A DNA stretch of 5,762 bases from a virus (IMGVR_UViG_3300045988_001067:1-5762); one strand, 5' to 3'; numbered from the stretch's first letter, positions 80-5,511 are shown. The notes: generated by a model not told the origin, from the letters alone. Numbers and translations are program-made.

Positions 80-219
80 CCGAATTTCCGCAAAACATTC
101 ACGAGTATCATCGCATGATAGCGACCGCACAAGCAAACGCAATGAAGCTTGAAGAGCTGCAAAAAATGGCAGCAGAAGAAGCAAAAGCAAAACCTGAAGC
201 AAAGGAGGAAGAAAAGTGA
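1..219 (+). CDS. VP3: Internal scaffolding protein VP3, C-terminal part (continuation of 5504..5683 across the circular junction; whole protein 132 aa)
   Basis: Frame 1 is open from nt 1 to TGA 217..219 (VRKASFDPQFLKSL...KLEELQKMAAEEAKAKPEAKEEEK*) and is in phase with the ORF starting at ATG 5504 once the 79-nt overlap is removed. It sits immediately upstream of VP1, as in gokushoviruses. It has the acidic ESYSDECDIKSIV motif typical of gokushovirus VP3. Confidence 0.7.
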   Translation, partial: VRKASFDPQFLKSLSQGALEGTEVDITEFPQNIHEYHRMIATAQANAMKLEELQKMAAEEAKAKPEAKEEEK

Positions 220-1892
220 ATCGAAACAATGAACGGCACTTCAACCAAATTCCAGAAATGAAAGCAAGTCGAACACGGTTCAACCGTGACCAGACAATTC
301 TCACGACATTCGATTCAGGAAAGCTGATTCCATTCTACGTTGACGAGGTATTGCCGGGCGATACCTTCAACGTAAACACCTCAGCAATCATCCGAATGAC
401 GACACCGAAATATCCGGTGATGGACGATGCATTCATCGACTTTTACTATTTCTATTGTCCTAACAGAATTTTGTGGGACGACTTCAAACAGTTCATGGGA
501 GAAGCTGAAAGCACGCCATGGATGCCAACGAAAGAATACAAAGTGCCAAAAATAACTATAAACGGAACGCAATCAAACGGATATCCATACGAAGCATCAA
601 TTCTAGACTATATGGGTGTACCAACAAAAGTAAAAGCAAAATTTTCAATAAACGCCTTACCAATTCGCGCTTATGTCATGATTTGGAACGAATTTTTCAG
701 AGACGAAAACGTAGACAATGCAGCAGTATGGAAAAGTGACAGTCAAGACGTGGCATACCAAGACACGCAAAATGAAAATAAAATAGAAGACAACCTTAGA
801 AACGCAATCAACGGAGGACGATGCTTACCGGTAAACAAGTTCCACGACTACTTTACAAGCTGTCTGCCTTATCCGCAGCGTGGACCGGAAGTAACGCTGC
901 CGATGGAAGGTAATGCACCGGTAGGAATGTACAAAAACCTCGAACTTACAGAATACGGAACAACAAGCGGAAAAAACTCAATCTACTTCAACCAAAAAGC
1001 CACAGATTCTTACATACCAGGAATCACGAACAACCAATCAGGAAACAGAATTTCGCAGGTAGCGGGAAGCTCGAGCGCTACAGCTCATGTAGCAGATGTG
1101 GCATATCTAGGCGCCGACCTAAGCGCAGTAACCGCAGCAACCATCAACGACTTAAGAAAAGCCATAGCAGTACAGCAGTACTACGAAGCGCTCGCACGAG
1201 GCGGCAGCCGATACCGCGAACAGGTACAAGCACTGTGGGACGTGACCATCAGCGACAAAACGGCACAAATCCCGGAATATCTTGGCGGTGGACGCTATCA
1301 CGTCAACATGAACCAAATCGTACAGACAAGCGGGCAGCAGACCGAAACGGACACACCTATCGGTGAAACTGGTGCAATGTCAGTAACGCCAATCAACGAA
1401 AGCAGCTTTACAAAATCTTTTGAAGAGCACGGATTTGTAATTGGTGTCTGTTGTGTACGGCACAATCACAGTTACCAGCAAGGCTTGGAACGTTTCTGGA
1501 GCAGAGAAGACAGGCTGGACTACTATGTACCGCAGTTCGCAAATCTGGGCGAACAGCCTGTAAAAAAGAAAGAAATCATGCTCACCGGCACAGCAACGGA
1601 CGAAGAAACGTTCGGCTATCAGGAAGCCTGGGCAGACTACAGGATGAAGCCTAACCGGGTATCCGGTAAAATGCGAAGCAACGCAACGGGCACGTTGGAT
1701 TTCTGGCACTATGCAGACAACTATTCAACCGTGCCAACGCTGTCACAGGCGTGGATGGCAGAAGAAAAAACGGAGATCGCAAGAACGTTGATCGTGCAGA
1801 ATGAACCGCAATTTTTTGGTGCAATCCGAGTAGCAAACAAAACCACAAGACGGATGCCGTTGTACAGCGTACCGGGCTTGTACAAACTGTAA
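216..1892 (+). CDS. VP1: Major capsid protein VP1 (phiX174 F-like, gokushovirus type), 558 aa
   Basis: Motifs FDSGKLIPFYVDEVLPGDTF near the N-terminus and INDLRKAIAVQQYYEALARGGSRYREQVQALWDV mid-protein are hallmark Microviridae capsid motifs. AGGAGG at 203..208 lies 7 nt before GTG 216. In-frame ATG 258 is a less likely alternative start, because the residues upstream of it resemble the N-terminus of gokushovirus VP1. Confidence 0.95.
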   Translation: MNRNNERHFNQIPEMKASRTRFNRDQTILTTFDSGKLIPFYVDEVLPGDTFNVNTSAIIRMTTPKYPVMDDAFIDFYYFYCPNRILWDDFKQFMGEAESTPWMPTKEYKVPKITINGTQSNGYPYEASILDYMGVPTKVKAKFSINALPIRAYVMIWNEFFRDENVDNAAVWKSDSQDVAYQDTQNENKIEDNLRNAINGGRCLPVNKFHDYFTSCLPYPQRGPEVTLPMEGNAPVGMYKNLELTEYGTTSGKNSIYFNQKATDSYIPGITNNQSGNRISQVAGSSSATAHVADVAYLGADLSAVTAATINDLRKAIAVQQYYEALARGGSRYREQVQALWDVTISDKTAQIPEYLGGGRYHVNMNQIVQTSGQQTETDTPIGETGAMSVTPINESSFTKSFEEHGFVIGVCCVRHNHSYQQGLERFWSREDRLDYYVPQFANLGEQPVKKKEIMLTGTATDEETFGYQEAWADYRMKPNRVSGKMRSNATGTLDFWHYADNYSTVPTLSQAWMAEEKTEIARTLIVQNEPQFFGAIRVANKTTRRMPLYSVPGLYKL

Positions 1893-1930: not shown

Positions 1931-2788
1931 ATGGGAGCATTATCAGGATTCTTAACAGCACTAAACGTAGCGGGAAACGTGGCAAACACAATCGGAACTT
2001 TTGCAGGAGCAGCAAAAAACATCGCTGGAGCTTTTGGCGGATACGGACAAGAAGGCAACAGCCAAAGCCAGGGCGGAAGCACAAGTCAGGGCGGTGGACA
2101 TTCCGAAAGCGGAAGCCAGTCGGGCACAAACGTGCAACAGGTCAGTGACTGGCTCAAGCAGGCATACGCATACCAAGGGCAAGAAGCAGCCATGCAGGGC
2201 AAATACAACAGTCAAAGTATGCTTAAACAGATGGGCTATAACACGCTACAAGCAATCATGCAAGGCGTATACAACCACATCGAGAACAATGTAGCAATGA
2301 ACTACAACAGCGCAGAAGCACTAGCAAACCGTGAATGGCAAGAGCACATGAGCAGCACAGCATATCAAAGAGCCGTAGAAGATATGAAAAAAGCGGGACT
2401 TAACCCGATTCTAGCATTCTCAAACGGTGGAGCAAGCACACCAGGCGGAAGCGCAGGAACAATCAGCGGTGCAAGTATGGGACTAGCAAGCAGCAGCGCA
2501 CTAGGCGTAAGCCGAAGCGGAGGATTCGTGCCTAACGCATACGAAAGCAGCAGCTGGAGCAAAAGCGAATGGTACAATGCAGCACAAAGCTGGCAGCAGA
2601 TGCTCAGTTCAACGCATATGACACCATACGGACTACAACGAGTCTTAACAGAAATCGGAGAAGACACAAGCAAAGCAATTGACAAAAACGTACCAAAGAA
2701 AAACGACAAAAAAAGCAACTATCAAGCGCCGCAGGACAAAACAGGATCCTACGGAGAAAAAAGAAAGCCGGGTGACTACTTAAGGTGA
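1931..2788 (+). CDS. VP2: Minor capsid / DNA pilot protein VP2 (phiX174 H-like), 285 aa
   Basis: It lies directly after VP1. The N-terminal half is Gly/Ser/Gln-rich. The conserved block STAYQRAVEDMKKAGLNPILA is typical of microvirus pilot proteins. An in-frame TAA at 1928..1930 fixes ATG 1931 as the first possible start. Confidence 0.85.
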   Translation: MGALSGFLTALNVAGNVANTIGTFAGAAKNIAGAFGGYGQEGNSQSQGGSTSQGGGHSESGSQSGTNVQQVSDWLKQAYAYQGQEAAMQGKYNSQSMLKQMGYNTLQAIMQGVYNHIENNVAMNYNSAEALANREWQEHMSSTAYQRAVEDMKKAGLNPILAFSNGGASTPGGSAGTISGASMGLASSSALGVSRSGGFVPNAYESSSWSKSEWYNAAQSWQQMLSSTHMTPYGLQRVLTEIGEDTSKAIDKNVPKKNDKKSNYQAPQDKTGSYGEKRKPGDYLR

Positions 2789-3804
2789 GTTGCTACAAGC
2801 CATTAATAAGGCTGTACAACCCTAACGACAAAAACATTAGCGGGAAGGTGTATTCACTCTCCCGCTTTTCTCAGTTAGCGGGAAAACAGCTAAAATATGA
2901 AGATTTGATGTATAGAAGAGATGTAATGCTGATACCATGCGGGCAGTGCATCGGATGCAGAATAAGACAAAGGGAGGACTGGACAACACGAATAGAATTA
3001 GAAGCACGAGATTATCCAAGAGAAGAAGTTTGGTTTATCACACTCACATATGATGACGATCACGTACCGGGCATGATAGTAAACACAGGCGAAATCATGC
3101 GAAAAGTACAATACGTCTGGAAACCGGGAGAGAAGAGCCCTGAAAGCGTCCAAACGTTAATGTATACTGACGTTCAAAAGTTCTTAAAACGTCTCAGAAA
3201 GGCTTATAAGGGCAAATTACGCTATTTTGTGGCGGGAGAATACGGAGAACAGACAGCTAGGCCGCATTATCATATGATATTATACGGATGGACGCCAACA
3301 GATCTAGAACACCTATACAAAATACAACACAACGGATATTTCAAAAGTAAATGGCTAGCAGACCTATGGGGCATGGGTCAAATACAGATAGCGCAAGCAG
3401 TACCGGAAACATACAGATATGTTGCAGGATACGTCACAAAAAAAATGTACGAAATAGACGGAAAGAAAGCTAACCAATACTACGAGTTAGGTCAACAAAA
3501 ACCATTCGCGTGCATGAGCTTAAAACCCGGACTAGGAGACCACTATTACCAAGAACACAAAGAAGAAATATGGAGACAAGGATACATCCAATGTACAAAC
3601 GGAAAGAAAGCCCAAATTCCACGTTATTATGAAAAAATGATGGAAAATGAAAACCCACAAAGGTTGTGGAGAATTAAACAGAACAGACAAGCAACAGCCA
3701 TAGCAGAAAACAGGCTAAAGTATGAAAATGCAGACTTTGAAGAGCAATGTAAGACAAAAGAAAGAGTAATCAAAAAGCAAATGAAGAAGAGAGGGACACT
3801 CTAA
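2785..3804 (+). CDS. VP4: Rolling-circle replication initiator VP4 (HUH endonuclease, phiX174 A-like), 339 aa
   Basis: It has motif I FITLTYDD, the HUH motif RPHYHMILYG (cat tat cat at 3265..3273) and the double-tyrosine motif YVAGYVTKK (compare phiX A protein YVAKYVNK). It also has the N-terminal Cys cluster PCGQCIGCR. GTG start 2785 overlaps the VP2 stop (GTGA). Confidence 0.93.
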   Translation: MSCYKPLIRLYNPNDKNISGKVYSLSRFSQLAGKQLKYEDLMYRRDVMLIPCGQCIGCRIRQREDWTTRIELEARDYPREEVWFITLTYDDDHVPGMIVNTGEIMRKVQYVWKPGEKSPESVQTLMYTDVQKFLKRLRKAYKGKLRYFVAGEYGEQTARPHYHMILYGWTPTDLEHLYKIQHNGYFKSKWLADLWGMGQIQIAQAVPETYRYVAGYVTKKMYEIDGKKANQYYELGQQKPFACMSLKPGLGDHYYQEHKEEIWRQGYIQCTNGKKAQIPRYYEKMMENENPQRLWRIKQNRQATAIAENRLKYENADFEEQCKTKERVIKKQMKKRGTL

Positions 3805-3814
3805 CGGTGTCACC

Positions 3815-3847
3815 TAGCCCAGTACCTATCAAGTAAGTACTGGGCTA
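3815..3847 (+). other. Perfect hairpin (11-bp stem, 11-nt loop) just after the VP4 stop
   Basis: tagcccagtac (3815..3825) is the exact reverse complement of gtactgggcta (3837..3847). There is no downstream T-run, so it is not a classical terminator. Confidence 0.8.
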
Positions 3848-3890
3848 ATGTCGTCTAAAGACTCCATGTATCACACTATTCAGTGATTCA

Positions 3891-3918
3891 AAGGGGTTGA
3901 CTTAAAAGTCAACCCCTT
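3891..3918 (+). other. Perfect hairpin (11-bp stem, 6-nt loop)
   Basis: aaggggttgac (3891..3901) pairs with gtcaacccctt (3908..3918), with loop ttaaaa. No T-run follows. Confidence 0.8.
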
Positions 3919-3925
3919 GCGTCAC

Positions 3926-3941
3926 GCCCCAGTCTTGGGGC
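3926..3941 (+). other. Short GC hairpin (6-bp stem, 4-nt loop)
   Basis: gcccca (3926..3931) pairs with tggggc (3936..3941), with loop gtct. Confidence 0.6.
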
Positions 3942-3947
3942 TGCCGC

Positions 3948-3999
3948 TGTACGCACGTGCGCACATGCGCGTAAGCGCGCACGCGCACACGCGCGCATA
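3948..3999. repeat. GC-rich alternating purine-pyrimidine tract (two blocks of 26 and 25 nt, CG/CA type), potentially Z-DNA or cruciform forming
   Basis: 3948..3973 and 3975..3999 alternate Y/R without exception, separated only by one extra A (3974). The tract contains the palindrome cgcacgtgcg (3952..3961) and the inverted pair atgcgcg (3965..3971) / cgcgcat (3992..3998). It runs directly into the AT-only palindrome ataatattat (3997..4006). Confidence 0.85.
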
Positions 4000-4098
4000 A
4001 TATTATATAACTTGTTGTAGACGTAGTAGTAGGCAATGTGGAAAAGTTGAAAAGTACTAAAATTTAACGCTAAAGCGTAAATAAAAAGCAAAAAACAC

Positions 4099-4211
4099 TG
4101 TTGAAAGATTTGTTGAAAACTTGTTGAAATGTTGAATGTTCGTCAAAATGACGAAAACCTTTGTGCAACTTTATGTTGAAAACCTGTTGAAAGTGTTGAA
4201 AGTGTTGAAAA
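4099..4211 (+). repeat. Iteron-like array: 8 exact direct copies of TGTTGAA(A) in two clusters of four
   Basis: Copies start at 4099, 4111, 4122, 4130 and at 4174, 4185, 4194, 4203. The last three form a 9-nt tandem, tgttgaaag x3 with one mismatch. Degenerate copies lie upstream: tgttgtag at 4013, tgtggaaaa at 4037 and gttgaaaa at 4046. All copies share the same orientation. Confidence 0.9.
4139..4155 (+). other. Inverted repeat at the centre of the iteron array (7-bp stem, 3-nt loop)
   Basis: ttcgtca (4139..4145) pairs with tgacgaa (4149..4155). Confidence 0.7.
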
Positions 4212-4221
4212 CGCGCACAGC

Positions 4222-4261
4222 GCTAAAAAAGAAACCATTTTCGTGAAGACACGAAAATGGT
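4222..4261 (-). terminator. Intrinsic terminator oriented for the minus strand (12-bp hairpin followed by a T-run on the - strand)
   Basis: accattttcgtg (4234..4245) pairs with cacgaaaatggt (4250..4261), with loop aaga. On the - strand the stem is followed by ttcttttttagc (complement of 4222..4233). On the + strand no T-run follows. Confidence 0.55.
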
Positions 4262-4328
4262 GATTAGCCGAGCTCCGCGTGCGCTCCGCACGGCAAGGCG
4301 CTAAAGCGCCATTCAAACCAAAAAGCAA

Positions 4329-4357
4329 TTGACAGCCGACAAAAAAAATGATATCAT
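4329..4357 (+). promoter_or_regulatory. Near-consensus sigma70/sigmaA promoter with extended -10
   Basis: TTGACA (4329..4334), a 17-nt spacer, then TATCAT (4352..4357) preceded by TGa (4349..4351). An A-rich tract lies upstream. The first gene behind it is the peptidase: SD AAGGAG at 4391..4396 and ATG at 4404. Confidence 0.7.
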
Positions 4358-4403
4358 CTAAGATAGAAAGCAAAACGCCATGAACGAATAAAGGAGCAAA
4401 AGC

Positions 4404-4796
4404 ATGGAAATCAAAGCGTATGTAGCAGAAGAGCAAGGAAACGAACAAGTTACAGACCACTTCAAAGTAAAAGAATTTGCATGCAAAGACGGGACACCAA
4501 TCGTATTCGTAGACGATTATTTAGCAGTCATTCTAGAAATCGCAAGAAAAAAAATCAATAAACCAATCATCATCACAAGCGGATACCGCACAATAAGCCA
4601 CAATAAAAAAGTAGGAGGAGCAAAATACAGCTACCACACAAGAGGCATGGCAGCTGACATCAGAGCGAACGGAGTAACACCAAAAGAGCTCGCAAAAGTG
4701 CTAGACAGAATCGTACCAAACAGTGGCGGTATCATCGTGTATGACAATTGGGTACATTTCGACACAAGAAATGAAAAATACAGAAAGGGGGTGTAA
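4404..4796 (+). CDS. Zinc metallopeptidase of the LAS / peptidase M15 superfamily (M15_3 / YcbK-MepK-like cell-wall peptidase), 130 aa; candidate endolysin
   Basis: It has N-terminal DHFKVKEFACKDG, then SGYRTISHNKKVGGAKYSYHTRGMAADI (H78-x6-D85; cac at 4635..4637 and gac at 4656..4658) and WVHFD (H118; cat at 4755..4757). This is the canonical H-x6-D...H zinc-ligand pattern of this family. There is a strong SD and no signal peptide or TM segment. Confidence 0.85.
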   Translation: MEIKAYVAEEQGNEQVTDHFKVKEFACKDGTPIVFVDDYLAVILEIARKKINKPIIITSGYRTISHNKKVGGAKYSYHTRGMAADIRANGVTPKELAKVLDRIVPNSGGIIVYDNWVHFDTRNEKYRKGV

Positions 4797-5271: not shown

Positions 5272-5511
5272 ATGAAACACAATTACTACGGCATTTGGGA
5301 CAGAGTGGCAAAGTGCTATGCATGGGTAGGCGAAAACAGAAGCGACGCAACGTTTGCACGGATGTGCAACGTAATGGCAAAGGACGAAAAAACTTTCATC
5401 GGGCAGAGCCCAGAGGACTACACCGGATTTAGGCTGGCAGTGTTTGAAGACGAGCTCGGCACGTTCACGAACGACACTGAAAAGGTATGGGAGGGAAAGC
5501 CGAATGAATAA
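5272..5511 (+). CDS. VP5: VP5-like non-structural protein (phiX174 C-like function proposed for gokushoviruses), 79 aa
   Basis: Size, its position just upstream of VP3, and the pattern Y.IWD.VAK.Y....A.R......D....I...PEDY..F.LA.F.D..GTF resemble gokushovirus VP5. SD AAGGAG (5257..5262) lies 9 nt before the ATG. Confidence 0.6.
   Translation: MKHNYYGIWDRVAKCYAWVGENRSDATFARMCNVMAKDEKTFIGQSPEDYTGFRLAVFEDELGTFTNDTEKVWEGKPNE

Follow-up and report, generated by a model that had tools for sequence, protein, structure and literature searches.

A gokushovirus repeat array resembling the core of a bacterial chromosome origin

The basal unwinding system (BUS) of bacterial chromosome origins (oriC) is defined by a DnaA box with no more than 2 mismatches, a spacer of at most 16 nt and at least 3 triplets of the form NAN with the consensus 3'-GAT-5', the DnaA-trios (PMC8287927). 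On average ~4 bp, rich in G/C, separate the proximal box from the trios (PMC8287927), and an AT-rich region lies beyond the triplets (PMC8287927; PMC6669920). In Bacillus subtilis the proximal box is non-consensus and box 7 overlaps box 6; the upstream boxes of the incC region act at a distance, and more DnaA rescues their loss (PMC6669920). In oriC2 of Clostridioides difficile the element 5'-CACCTACTACTATTACTACTATGA-3' is located downstream of three boxes and upstream of the DNA unwinding element (DUE; PMC7561715). This study concerns a module with the same order of elements in IMGVR_UViG_3300045988_001067, the complete, circular genome of a gokushovirus (Microviridae) recovered from a human gut metagenome, with every gene on the + strand; the whole stretch of 5762 nt is called the window below.

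In textbook accounts the Microviridae replicate by rolling circle and require nothing more than a nickase of their own and the elongation enzymes of the host. Few phages of the human gut are as abundant and persistent, and the hosts and life cycles of nearly all of them are obscure. The module described here has the architecture of a BUS, is conserved among the relatives of the window and shares its core with bacterial origins. Its TGTTGAA(A) repeats are probably host DnaA sites in the box variant of the host lineage, which together with the adjoining triplets and AT-rich stretch would form a copy of the BUS.

Organisation and conservation of the module

The array is located in the sole long non-coding stretch of the window (3805-4403), between VP4 and the endolysin gene (Table 1). 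As given in a preliminary description of this DNA, it contains eight exact copies of TGTTGAA in one orientation (+ strand only), in two clusters of four with spacings of 12, 11 and 8 nt and of 11, 9 and 9 nt, and with a spacing of 44 nt from the last copy of one cluster to the first of the next. The 7-bp inverted repeat between the clusters, the degenerate copy TGTGGAAAA and the AT-only run ATAATATTATATAA (3997-4010) were likewise found where that description had placed them. The repeat unit is 8-12 bp with a core of 7-9 nt, so that the spacing is loose rather than strictly helical, contrary to the near-helical arrangement first proposed. A count of the motif in the rest of the genome and in shuffled controls had also been suggested. 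No further TGTTGAA was found by exact matching on either strand of the window, and dinucleotide-preserving shuffles averaged 1.11 copies and had at most 5, with 0 of 200 reaching 8.

On the - strand the module reads 5'-(8 boxes)...TTTTCAAC-TTTTCCACA-ttgc-CTACTACTACGTCTAC-AACAAGTTATATAATATTAT, i.e. boxes, a 4-nt spacer, (CTA)n and AT-rich DNA. Two parts of this core had not been mentioned previously, namely the TAG part of the triplet run (TAG ACG TAG TAG TAG, 4018-4032) and a second adjacent degenerate copy, AGTTGAAAA. Read from its 3' end, the triplet 5'-TAG-3' is the trio consensus 3'-GAT-5'. The reverse complement of TGTGGAAAA is TTTTCCACA, a sequence that fits the relaxed DnaA-box consensus TTWTNCACA, as had been pointed out, and has one mismatch to TTATCCACA. 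The main repeat TGTTGAAAA, whose reverse complement is TTTTCAACA, has 2 mismatches to the standard box. With the proximal pair and the eight TGTTGAA copies, the module contains ten same-oriented candidate boxes within 175 bp.

When this arrangement was set beside the definition of the BUS, TGTGGAAAA and TGTTGAAAA were both within 2 mismatches of a standard or species-specific motif, and the spacer GCAA was within the range of 0-16 nt. Three consecutive NAN triplets (TAG TAG TAG) adjoined the spacer on the strand and side that the box orientation dictates, and AT-rich DNA was present beyond the triplets at 3997-4011, though short compared with chromosomal DUEs. The triplet orientation was identical in the phage, in C. 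difficile oriC2 and in two bacterial origins (L107 and L108) described below. The pattern TAGTAGTAG N0-16 TGTGGAWAA was matched once in the window and in 0 of 200 shuffles. As an oriC is located on a chromosome, typically beside dnaA/dnaN, and this module between VP4 and the endolysin gene of a 5.76-kb circular microvirus, it resembles the core of an oriC but is not an oriC itself. The preliminary description had suggested an iteron or DnaA-box origin with an unwinding element. The latter part can be sharpened, as the AT-rich stretch, TAG run, spacer and TGTGGAAAA/AGTTGAAAA pair reproduce the order of the BUS; the iteron part is considered below.

The block was present in 47 GenBank gokushovirus records and in well over 100 IMG/VR contigs, and the whole block was kept in 57 of the 58 close relatives whose sequence extends far enough past VP4. 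The single close relative lacking it, L041, is an odd 8.8-kb contig, read in part, which diverges after the hairpin that follows VP4. Mean identity to the window was 90.2% for the module, compared with 76.4% for the third and 94.6% for the first and second codon positions of VP4. The module evolves more slowly than the third codon positions of VP4, and the array is conserved and under selection. Repeat number and phase, which the preliminary description had proposed to check in relatives, followed a modal layout of 12,11,8,44,11,9,9 in 39 of 87 sequences, and most of the others differed by one mutated copy.

Among 690 copy instances, the core positions G2, T3 and A6 were conserved at 99-100%, and the spacers drifted. 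Position 4 was T (87.5%) or G (12.3%), with a single exception among the 690 copies, and was never C and essentially never A. The proximal box had the form xGTGGAAAA in 57 of 69 distinct relatives. Copy 5 was TGTGGAAAA in 20 of these 69 relatives and copy 2 in 6, MG945781 contained TGTGGAAAA twice within cluster 1, and the perfect consensus TGTGGATAA was present in register at copy 2 in KT264789 and KT264788. This exchange of TGTTGAA and TGTGGAA at homologous copy positions is explained by a single binder tolerant of either T or G at position 4, and DnaA is the only candidate binder that would also explain the triplets.

The core was also retained in shorter versions of the module. In most relatives the triplet run is TAG GAG TAG TAG TAG or (TAG)5. 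The run has five to seven triplets in relatives, their spacer is GGAG, AGGC or GGGC, and an AT-rich run of 15-27 nt is found at the same place in all of them. The smallest version, in KT264799, has the AT-rich stretch, (TAG)5, GGAG and two boxes only, and intermediate versions carry six boxes. KT264799 keeps exactly the basal unit, which argues for opening, and not mere titration, as the central function. A near-identical module core was shared by two phage lineages in which VP4 is ~46-48% and VP1 ~45% identical. The central palindrome is clade-specific, and other lineages carry unrelated 6-8-bp palindromes in its place, e.g. TGCACAAA..TTTGTGCA or CTTTAC..GTAAAG. The sequence of the small hairpin at 4067-4078 also differs among lineages, with some palindrome always present.

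BLAST against the window placed 4001-4212 in inverted orientation, with collinear flanks, in L010, L018, L021, L032, L036 and L039, and the module was inverted also in MG945867 and L092; the preliminary description had not noted this inversion. The inverted form was seen in ~9% of the close relatives and, judged by match strand, in roughly 10 of the 47 GenBank records. GC-rich tracts border the module on both sides, and these tracts (CGCGCAC-type) are likely recombination substrates of the inversions. The left tract is a 49-nt (CG/CA)n sequence with Z-DNA or cruciform potential, conserved in kind and not in sequence. As a single strand the module folded no better than its shuffles (z = -0.58; 56 of 200 shuffles folded as well), and the non-coding flanks were strongly structured (z = -10.2 for 3805-3996 and z = -5.4 for 4212-4328). 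The tolerated inversion and the lack of single-strand structure indicate that the module most likely acts on the duplex replicative form.

TTCAACA motifs in bacterial origins

A scan of 185,579 genomes, one per bacterial species, for three tandem copies of TGTTGAAA/TGTKGAAA returned at least 120 loci, most of them in metagenome bins; the proportions given here come from a sample of the matches. About 60 of the listed loci were from Oscillospiraceae, Ruminococcaceae, Ruminococcus, Gemmiger or other Clostridia, and 16 were no more than 8 kb from dnaA, dnaN or rnpA. An 8-kb origin window is ~0.3-0.4% of a 3-Mb genome, and on this rough estimate well under one such locus would be expected by chance. 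DnaA, DnaN (beta clamp) and the RNase P protein were confirmed with Pfam in L107 and L108. Neither VP1 nor VP4 was found at any of the 120 loci among the matches listed.

In the dnaA-dnaN spacers TTCAACA outnumbered TTCCACA by 23:6, 9:0, 17:4, 24:0 and 12:7, and it was rare in the flanks. It formed same-oriented tandem arrays with a spacing of 9-11 bp, like the phage clusters (L107, L122), and it abutted (CTA)n and AT-rich DNA just upstream of dnaN (TTTCCACAgTTTCAACAtaccCTACTACTACTACTAactatatac in L107, TTTCAACAtTTTCAACAccaCTACTAATACTACTAaaatt in L108). Box, (CTA)n and AT-rich DNA were found together in a further nine cases (L125, L130, L172, L185, L100, L102, L122, L139 and L197). The spacers between box and triplets in bacteria were tacc, cca, ggta and gggg. 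The oriC of L172 carries TTTCCACTTTTCAACA, which was compared with the overlapping box pair of the phage, and the origin core of L150 has CTACAACAAGTT adjoining the triplets, as in the phage. Spacers with TTTTCAACA rather than TTATCCACA boxes were those of L107 (6478-7750), L108 (4825-5116), L122 (1595-2496), L185 (4942-5574) and L102.

By these comparisons TTTTCAACA showed itself to be the main putative box type in the dnaA-dnaN spacers of Ruminococcus/Oscillospiraceae, which indicates that it serves as the working DnaA box of a large, little-studied gut order (Oscillospirales). It looks like an undescribed lineage-specific variant of the DnaA box. The main repeat had been described as one mismatch from the relaxed consensus; this understated the case, since TTTTCAACA is the dominant box type in origin spacers of Ruminococcus/Oscillospiraceae. 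DnaA of Ruminococcus/Oscillospiraceae has the sequence GGRDHSTIVYA, compared with GGRDHTTV(I/L)HA in B. subtilis, Escherichia coli and Aquifex, and this change to RDHSTIVYA in the DNA-binding signature is a possible correlate of the altered box. As the same box type, arrays and core are present in origins of the likely host lineage, the repeats are most likely host-type DnaA boxes and not iterons for a phage Rep protein. The box variant, together with a Firmicute-type promoter and ribosome-binding site, points to Ruminococcus/Oscillospiraceae as the likely host.

L150 (CAVEID010000008.1) is titled Oxalobacter sp., but shares 56% DnaA identity with a Clostridiales bin and has TTTCCACA/TTTCAACA boxes in its origin core. 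This bin probably carries the wrong name and may be a near relative of the true host of the phage. TGTTGAAA boxes beside triplets were seen also in Anaerolineae (L100) and Thermotogota (L139, L197), and a small palindrome, GGCTnnATAnAGCC, is located between the box arrays and the core in the bacterial origins L107 and L185. Outside oriC, TGTTGAAAACTCTGTKGAAAnTGTKGAAA was found with nearby TTTTCCACA boxes (L097 3500-3600 and L112 4300-4400; also L149 and L156). In L097 and L112, two genera, this cluster is located between the genes for a class-II fructose-bisphosphate aldolase and a SpoU-family methylase, and clusters of this type are probably regulatory or titrating DnaA-box clusters. A BLAST search of the module against 72,556 plasmids gave no match.

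Proposed function and alternative explanations

We infer that DnaA-ATP would fill the ten same-oriented boxes on the double-stranded replicative form, that the two triplet-adjacent boxes would pass a DnaA oligomer onto the TAG strand, and that the adjoining AT-rich DNA at 3997-4011 would then melt. The opening would start or boost phage replication, most likely through loading of the host helicase, by which the replicative form would be copied in theta fashion or maintained; another possibility is that single-stranded DNA becomes exposed to the phage nickase VP4. The eight TGTTGAA copies, which are comparable to the upstream boxes of B. subtilis incC, would serve as an expandable recruiting platform that raises local DnaA, with the proximal pair and the triplets performing the opening. 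A bolder proposal, which we hold as tentative and rather doubtful, is that two gokushovirus lineages captured or converged on the host oriC core, that the replicative form is a DnaA-controlled mini-chromosome, and that VP4 is needed only for packaged strands.

Several points weigh against the identification of the module as a BUS with host DnaA boxes. The T at position 4 of TTTTCAACA replaces a base strongly conserved in the E. coli/B. subtilis consensus, and the 8-9-bp spacings leave no gap between 9-mer boxes, unlike the 2-bp gaps in E. coli arrays. The AT-only stretch in the window is short (14 nt), and the fourth triplet here is ACG, which violates the NAN rule (GAG in most relatives). The host is itself a predicted one, the bacterial evidence is mostly from metagenome-assembled genomes, and some of the genome matches are coding repeats (L105, L136) or chance. 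To our knowledge, the Microviridae studied replicate with Rep and the host helicase and polymerase only.

The boxes might instead titrate or sense host DnaA with no firing of an origin, which we consider unlikely. As a sink, the multicopy replicative forms would soak up DnaA and stop initiation of the host chromosome, as in the inc regions of B. subtilis oriC and in datA. The presence of ten boxes in 175 bp on a multicopy molecule is consistent with this, DnaA-box clusters outside oriC exist in these bacteria (L097, L112), and both incompatibility from cloned oriC box regions and titration by datA are established. A sink needs no triplets, fixed 4-nt spacer or AT-rich stretch, yet these are the most conserved parts of the module and, with two boxes, all that KT264799 retains. 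As a sensor, DnaA would be a transcription factor timing the downstream promoter at 4329-4357. This promoter is strong and is located ~120 nt downstream of the array; however, the module can be inverted relative to it, and the promoter and its distance vary among relatives. DnaA-dependent opening of the replicative form is favoured over pure titration.

It is very unlikely that the repeats are iterons for VP4, i.e. the binding locus of a rolling-circle double-strand origin with its nick site in the adjoining invariant AACTTGTTGTAG. Models for such a locus are the direct repeats of pMV158 and the gpII repeats of f1. AACTTG, which matches the initial six bases of the nick region of phiX174 (CAACTTG^ATA), is invariant in all relatives, and a single inverted block comprises both the repeats and the candidate nick site. 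However, the same motif arrays fill bacterial chromosome origins that encode no VP4, CTACAACAAGTT is present also in the bacterial origin core of L150, and inversion would flip the nicked and packaged strand. The invertibility of the block and the occurrence of the same sequence in a bacterial origin lower the likelihood of a VP4 nick site within the module. The repeats also do not co-vary with VP4, which is only ~46-48% identical across lineages with a near-identical module, and the unit of 8-12 bp differs from the ~17-22 bp required of an iteron. The iteron reading of the preliminary description was abandoned on these grounds. The reverse strand of GTAGACGTAGTAG reads TACTACG, a nick sequence of the pMV158 type; this candidate was also rejected, as its G is not conserved (GGAGTAG in relatives).

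An operator array, for a small phage protein (38-aa, 93-aa and VP5-like open reading frames, ORFs) or for a host response regulator such as Spo0A, was judged highly improbable. The 0A-box consensus of Spo0A is TGNCGAA, and Spo0A boxes are found in phage phi29. TGTTGAA is one base from TGTCGAA, the arms of the central palindrome are two perfect matches to TGNCGAA, and the small ORFs have no assigned function. Against this, position 4 was T or G in 99.9% of the 690 copies and never C, other lineages replace the TGNCGAA palindrome by unrelated ones, and in bacteria the boxes abut DnaA-trios, where only DnaA is expected. In addition, no DNA-binding domain was detected in the small ORFs except the generic Phage_ORF5 family. 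The operator alternative of the preliminary description found no support here, and Spo0A boxes were dropped as the principal explanation because C never occurs at position 4 and the palindrome is clade-specific.

There is almost no likelihood of a single-strand element, in which the packaged strand or an RNA would fold as a complementary-strand origin or non-coding RNA: small hairpins do occur between the clusters, but the module folds like its shuffles, has no Rfam family match and occurs in both orientations, which changes the single-strand sequence, and the structured parts are the flanks. An Rfam scan of the whole window gave only sub-threshold miRNA/snoRNA look-alikes (mir-297/mir-466), located in the (CG/CA)n tract. 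A XerCD/dif-like site at 3990-4020 was rejected because the 28-bp dif-like site is not conserved, its GCGC part being absent in KT264799 and variable elsewhere. Integration of the dif type was rejected as well, as only 5.4-5.8-kb circles carry this VP1 and neither VP1 nor VP4 was seen at the 120 listed genome loci. Small ORFs that overlap the array, one of 36 aa on the + strand and two of 32 and 105 aa on the opposite strand, were rejected: they had no family hits, and the 8/9/11/12 spacings break any frame.

The flanks of the module contain further signals. Directly 3' of the VP4 stop is a hairpin at 3815-3847 (L087 965-1000, L089 3480-3515, L090 3485-3520), the stem of which shows compensatory changes between lineages (AGCCCAGTACC/GGTACTGGGCT, GGGCCTAATCC/GGATTAGGCCC, CAGCCAAGTA/TACTTGGCTG); no variation is seen in its loop TATCAAG or its 5' flank TGTCA. 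The loop, as reverse complement (ACTTGATA), is the phiX174 nick-site core, but on the non-coding strand, and the hairpin is a candidate Rep or priming signal. A perfect 13-bp hairpin (3891-3918) is found only in some relatives, and a conserved GC-rich block (4262-4320) contains the hairpin GGCGC TAAA GCGCC. A 12-bp perfect hairpin at 4234-4261, ACCATTTTCGTG AAGA CACGAAAATGGT, is an insertion absent from six aligned GenBank relatives, and it scores terminator-like on the - strand. The structured flanks 3805-3996 and 4212-4328 are candidates for a complementary-strand origin or terminators. The promoter at 4329-4357 is a near-consensus sigma-70 promoter (TTGACA, 17 nt, extended -10 TG-n-TATCAT; 11/12 matches); followed by AAAGGAG, it precedes the endolysin gene and is a Firmicute-like expression signal.

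Table 1. Features of the window, with positions counted from its first nucleotide.
Feature	Position	Strand	Remark
Whole module: AT-rich stretch, triplet run, 2+4+4 boxes	4001-4212	.	autonomous 212-bp block
AT-rich stretch ATAATATTATATAAC, candidate DUE	3997-4011	.	
DnaA-trio-like run TTG TTG TAG ACG TAG TAG TAG	4012-4032	+	three box-proximal triplets are TAG
4-nt spacer GCAA, triplets to first box	4033-4036	+	
Proximal box pair TGTGGAAAA (4037-4045) and AGTTGAAAA (4045-4053)	4037-4053	+	1-nt overlap
Small hairpin/palindrome ACGC TAAA GCGT, between proximal pair and cluster 1	4067-4078	.	retained in centroid fold
Box cluster 1, TGTTGAA(A) x4	4099-4138	+	starts 4099, 4111, 4122, 4130
Central palindrome TTCGTCA AAA TGACGAA, between clusters	4139-4155	.	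arms 4139-4145, 4149-4155
Box cluster 2, TGTTGAAA x4	4174-4211	+	starts 4174, 4185, 4194, 4203
GC-rich alternating purine-pyrimidine quasi-palindrome bordering AT-rich end	3948-3996	.	
Right GC-rich flank ACGCGCACAGCGC	4211-4223		
VP1, major capsid	216-1892	+	
VP2, pilot protein	1931-2788	+	
VP4, replication initiator	2785-3804	+	
Peptidase-M15 endolysin	4404-4796	+	
ORF5/VP5-like protein	5272-5511	+	
Scaffold gene	spans window ends	+	

Comparison with other origins

Full-text literature searches, with most subscription journals outside their coverage, returned no paper linking Microviridae/gokushoviruses to DnaA boxes and no description of DnaA-trios in a phage, and a text search for the motif string returned primer sequences only. 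DnaA boxes in plasmid and phage-plasmid origins have long been known. What is new, as far as we can tell, is a chromosomal-type, triplet-containing core with a host-lineage box variant in a rolling-circle single-stranded DNA phage. If functional, the module would add a host-initiator-dependent step to microvirus replication and would provide a means of persisting over long periods or of controlling host replication. The module would also be a natural minimal BUS for mechanistic work (~60-bp core, 212 bp in full), and TTTTCAACA would be a handle for host prediction, pointing to Ruminococcus/Oscillospiraceae. If the replicative form were indeed a mini-chromosome, phage copying would be tied to the host initiation cycle, a plasmid-like carrier state with no integrase would be possible, and the box variant would be a host-range marker readable from the sequence.

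Complete BUS-like modules with canonical boxes were found in larger IMG/VR contigs of 9.7-158 kb (L215/L258, L253, L221, L266, L285, L322), for example tatatatatatttt(TAG)6GGGGTGTGGATAAGTTGATAAG with an array of TGTGGATAA. No dnaA or dnaN was found near the modules of the larger viral contigs examined; the module of L221 adjoins a DnaB-like helicase gene and that of L253 has a RecT-like gene in its vicinity. Similar modules are located beside replication genes in some tailed-phage contigs, and phages may make wider use of host-type modules for DnaA opening. A match to TTTAGTAGTAGATACTTGTGGAAAA recurred in a conserved stretch that is not AT-rich (L224, L225, L237, L249, L250, L257, L265 and others), in contigs mostly of ~94-97 kb and some of ~19-122 kb, lacks a second box as well as an AT-rich flank, and has the look of a chance match in coding sequence.

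Among extrachromosomal elements there is a precedent in the Limosilactobacillus reuteri plasmid pTE15, whose theta minireplicon is Rep-less and combines DnaA boxes with AT-rich DNA and predicted trios (PMC9743546). Like the phage module, pTE15 places host DnaA boxes beside AT-rich DNA, and it apparently needs no Rep of its own. The origins of P1 (oriR), pSC101, F and RK2 have one to four DnaA boxes and 17-22-bp iterons for the plasmid initiator. They share with the phage module the presence of DnaA boxes near AT-rich DNA, but the module has no such iterons; unlike in these classical plasmid origins, the phage initiator is a HUH nickase and the layout is that of a chromosomal triplet-containing core. 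The 30-bp origin of phiX174, CAACTTG^ATATTAATAAC..., is located inside gene A. It belongs to the same virus family and has an AT-rich stretch with the hexamer AACTTG at the AT-rich edge, as here, but no repeats, DnaA boxes or triplets, and the hexamer of the present module is found also in a bacterial origin. Dense boxes that hold many DnaA molecules are common to the phage module, E. coli datA and the DnaA-box clusters and inc regions of B. subtilis; unlike the module, datA and inc-type loci have no adjoining triplet run or unwinding element.

The closest counterparts are chromosomal. Ruminococcus/Oscillospiraceae oriC (L107, L108, L122, L185, L150 and others) has the same TTTTCAACA variant mixed with TTTTCCACA, in same-oriented arrays of 9-12 bp, and the same core of two boxes, 3-4 nt, (CTA)n and AT-rich DNA. 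Its spacers are 300-1300 bp long with 9-29 boxes in both orientations, and beyond the motifs they have no extended nucleotide homology to the phage. Compared with a chromosomal BUS, the phage module is carried by a 5.8-kb rolling-circle single-stranded DNA phage and is not beside dnaA/dnaN. At 212 bp it is far more compact, it is found in either orientation within the genome, and its AT-rich stretch is short. The order of the elements and the orientation of box and triplets are the same as in B. subtilis (incC boxes 6/7 with the DnaA-trios) and in C. difficile oriC2, and the tandem overlapping proximal pair with upstream boxes is a feature common to the BUS and the phage module (Richardson 2016/2019; Pelliciari 2021; Oliveira Paiva 2020).

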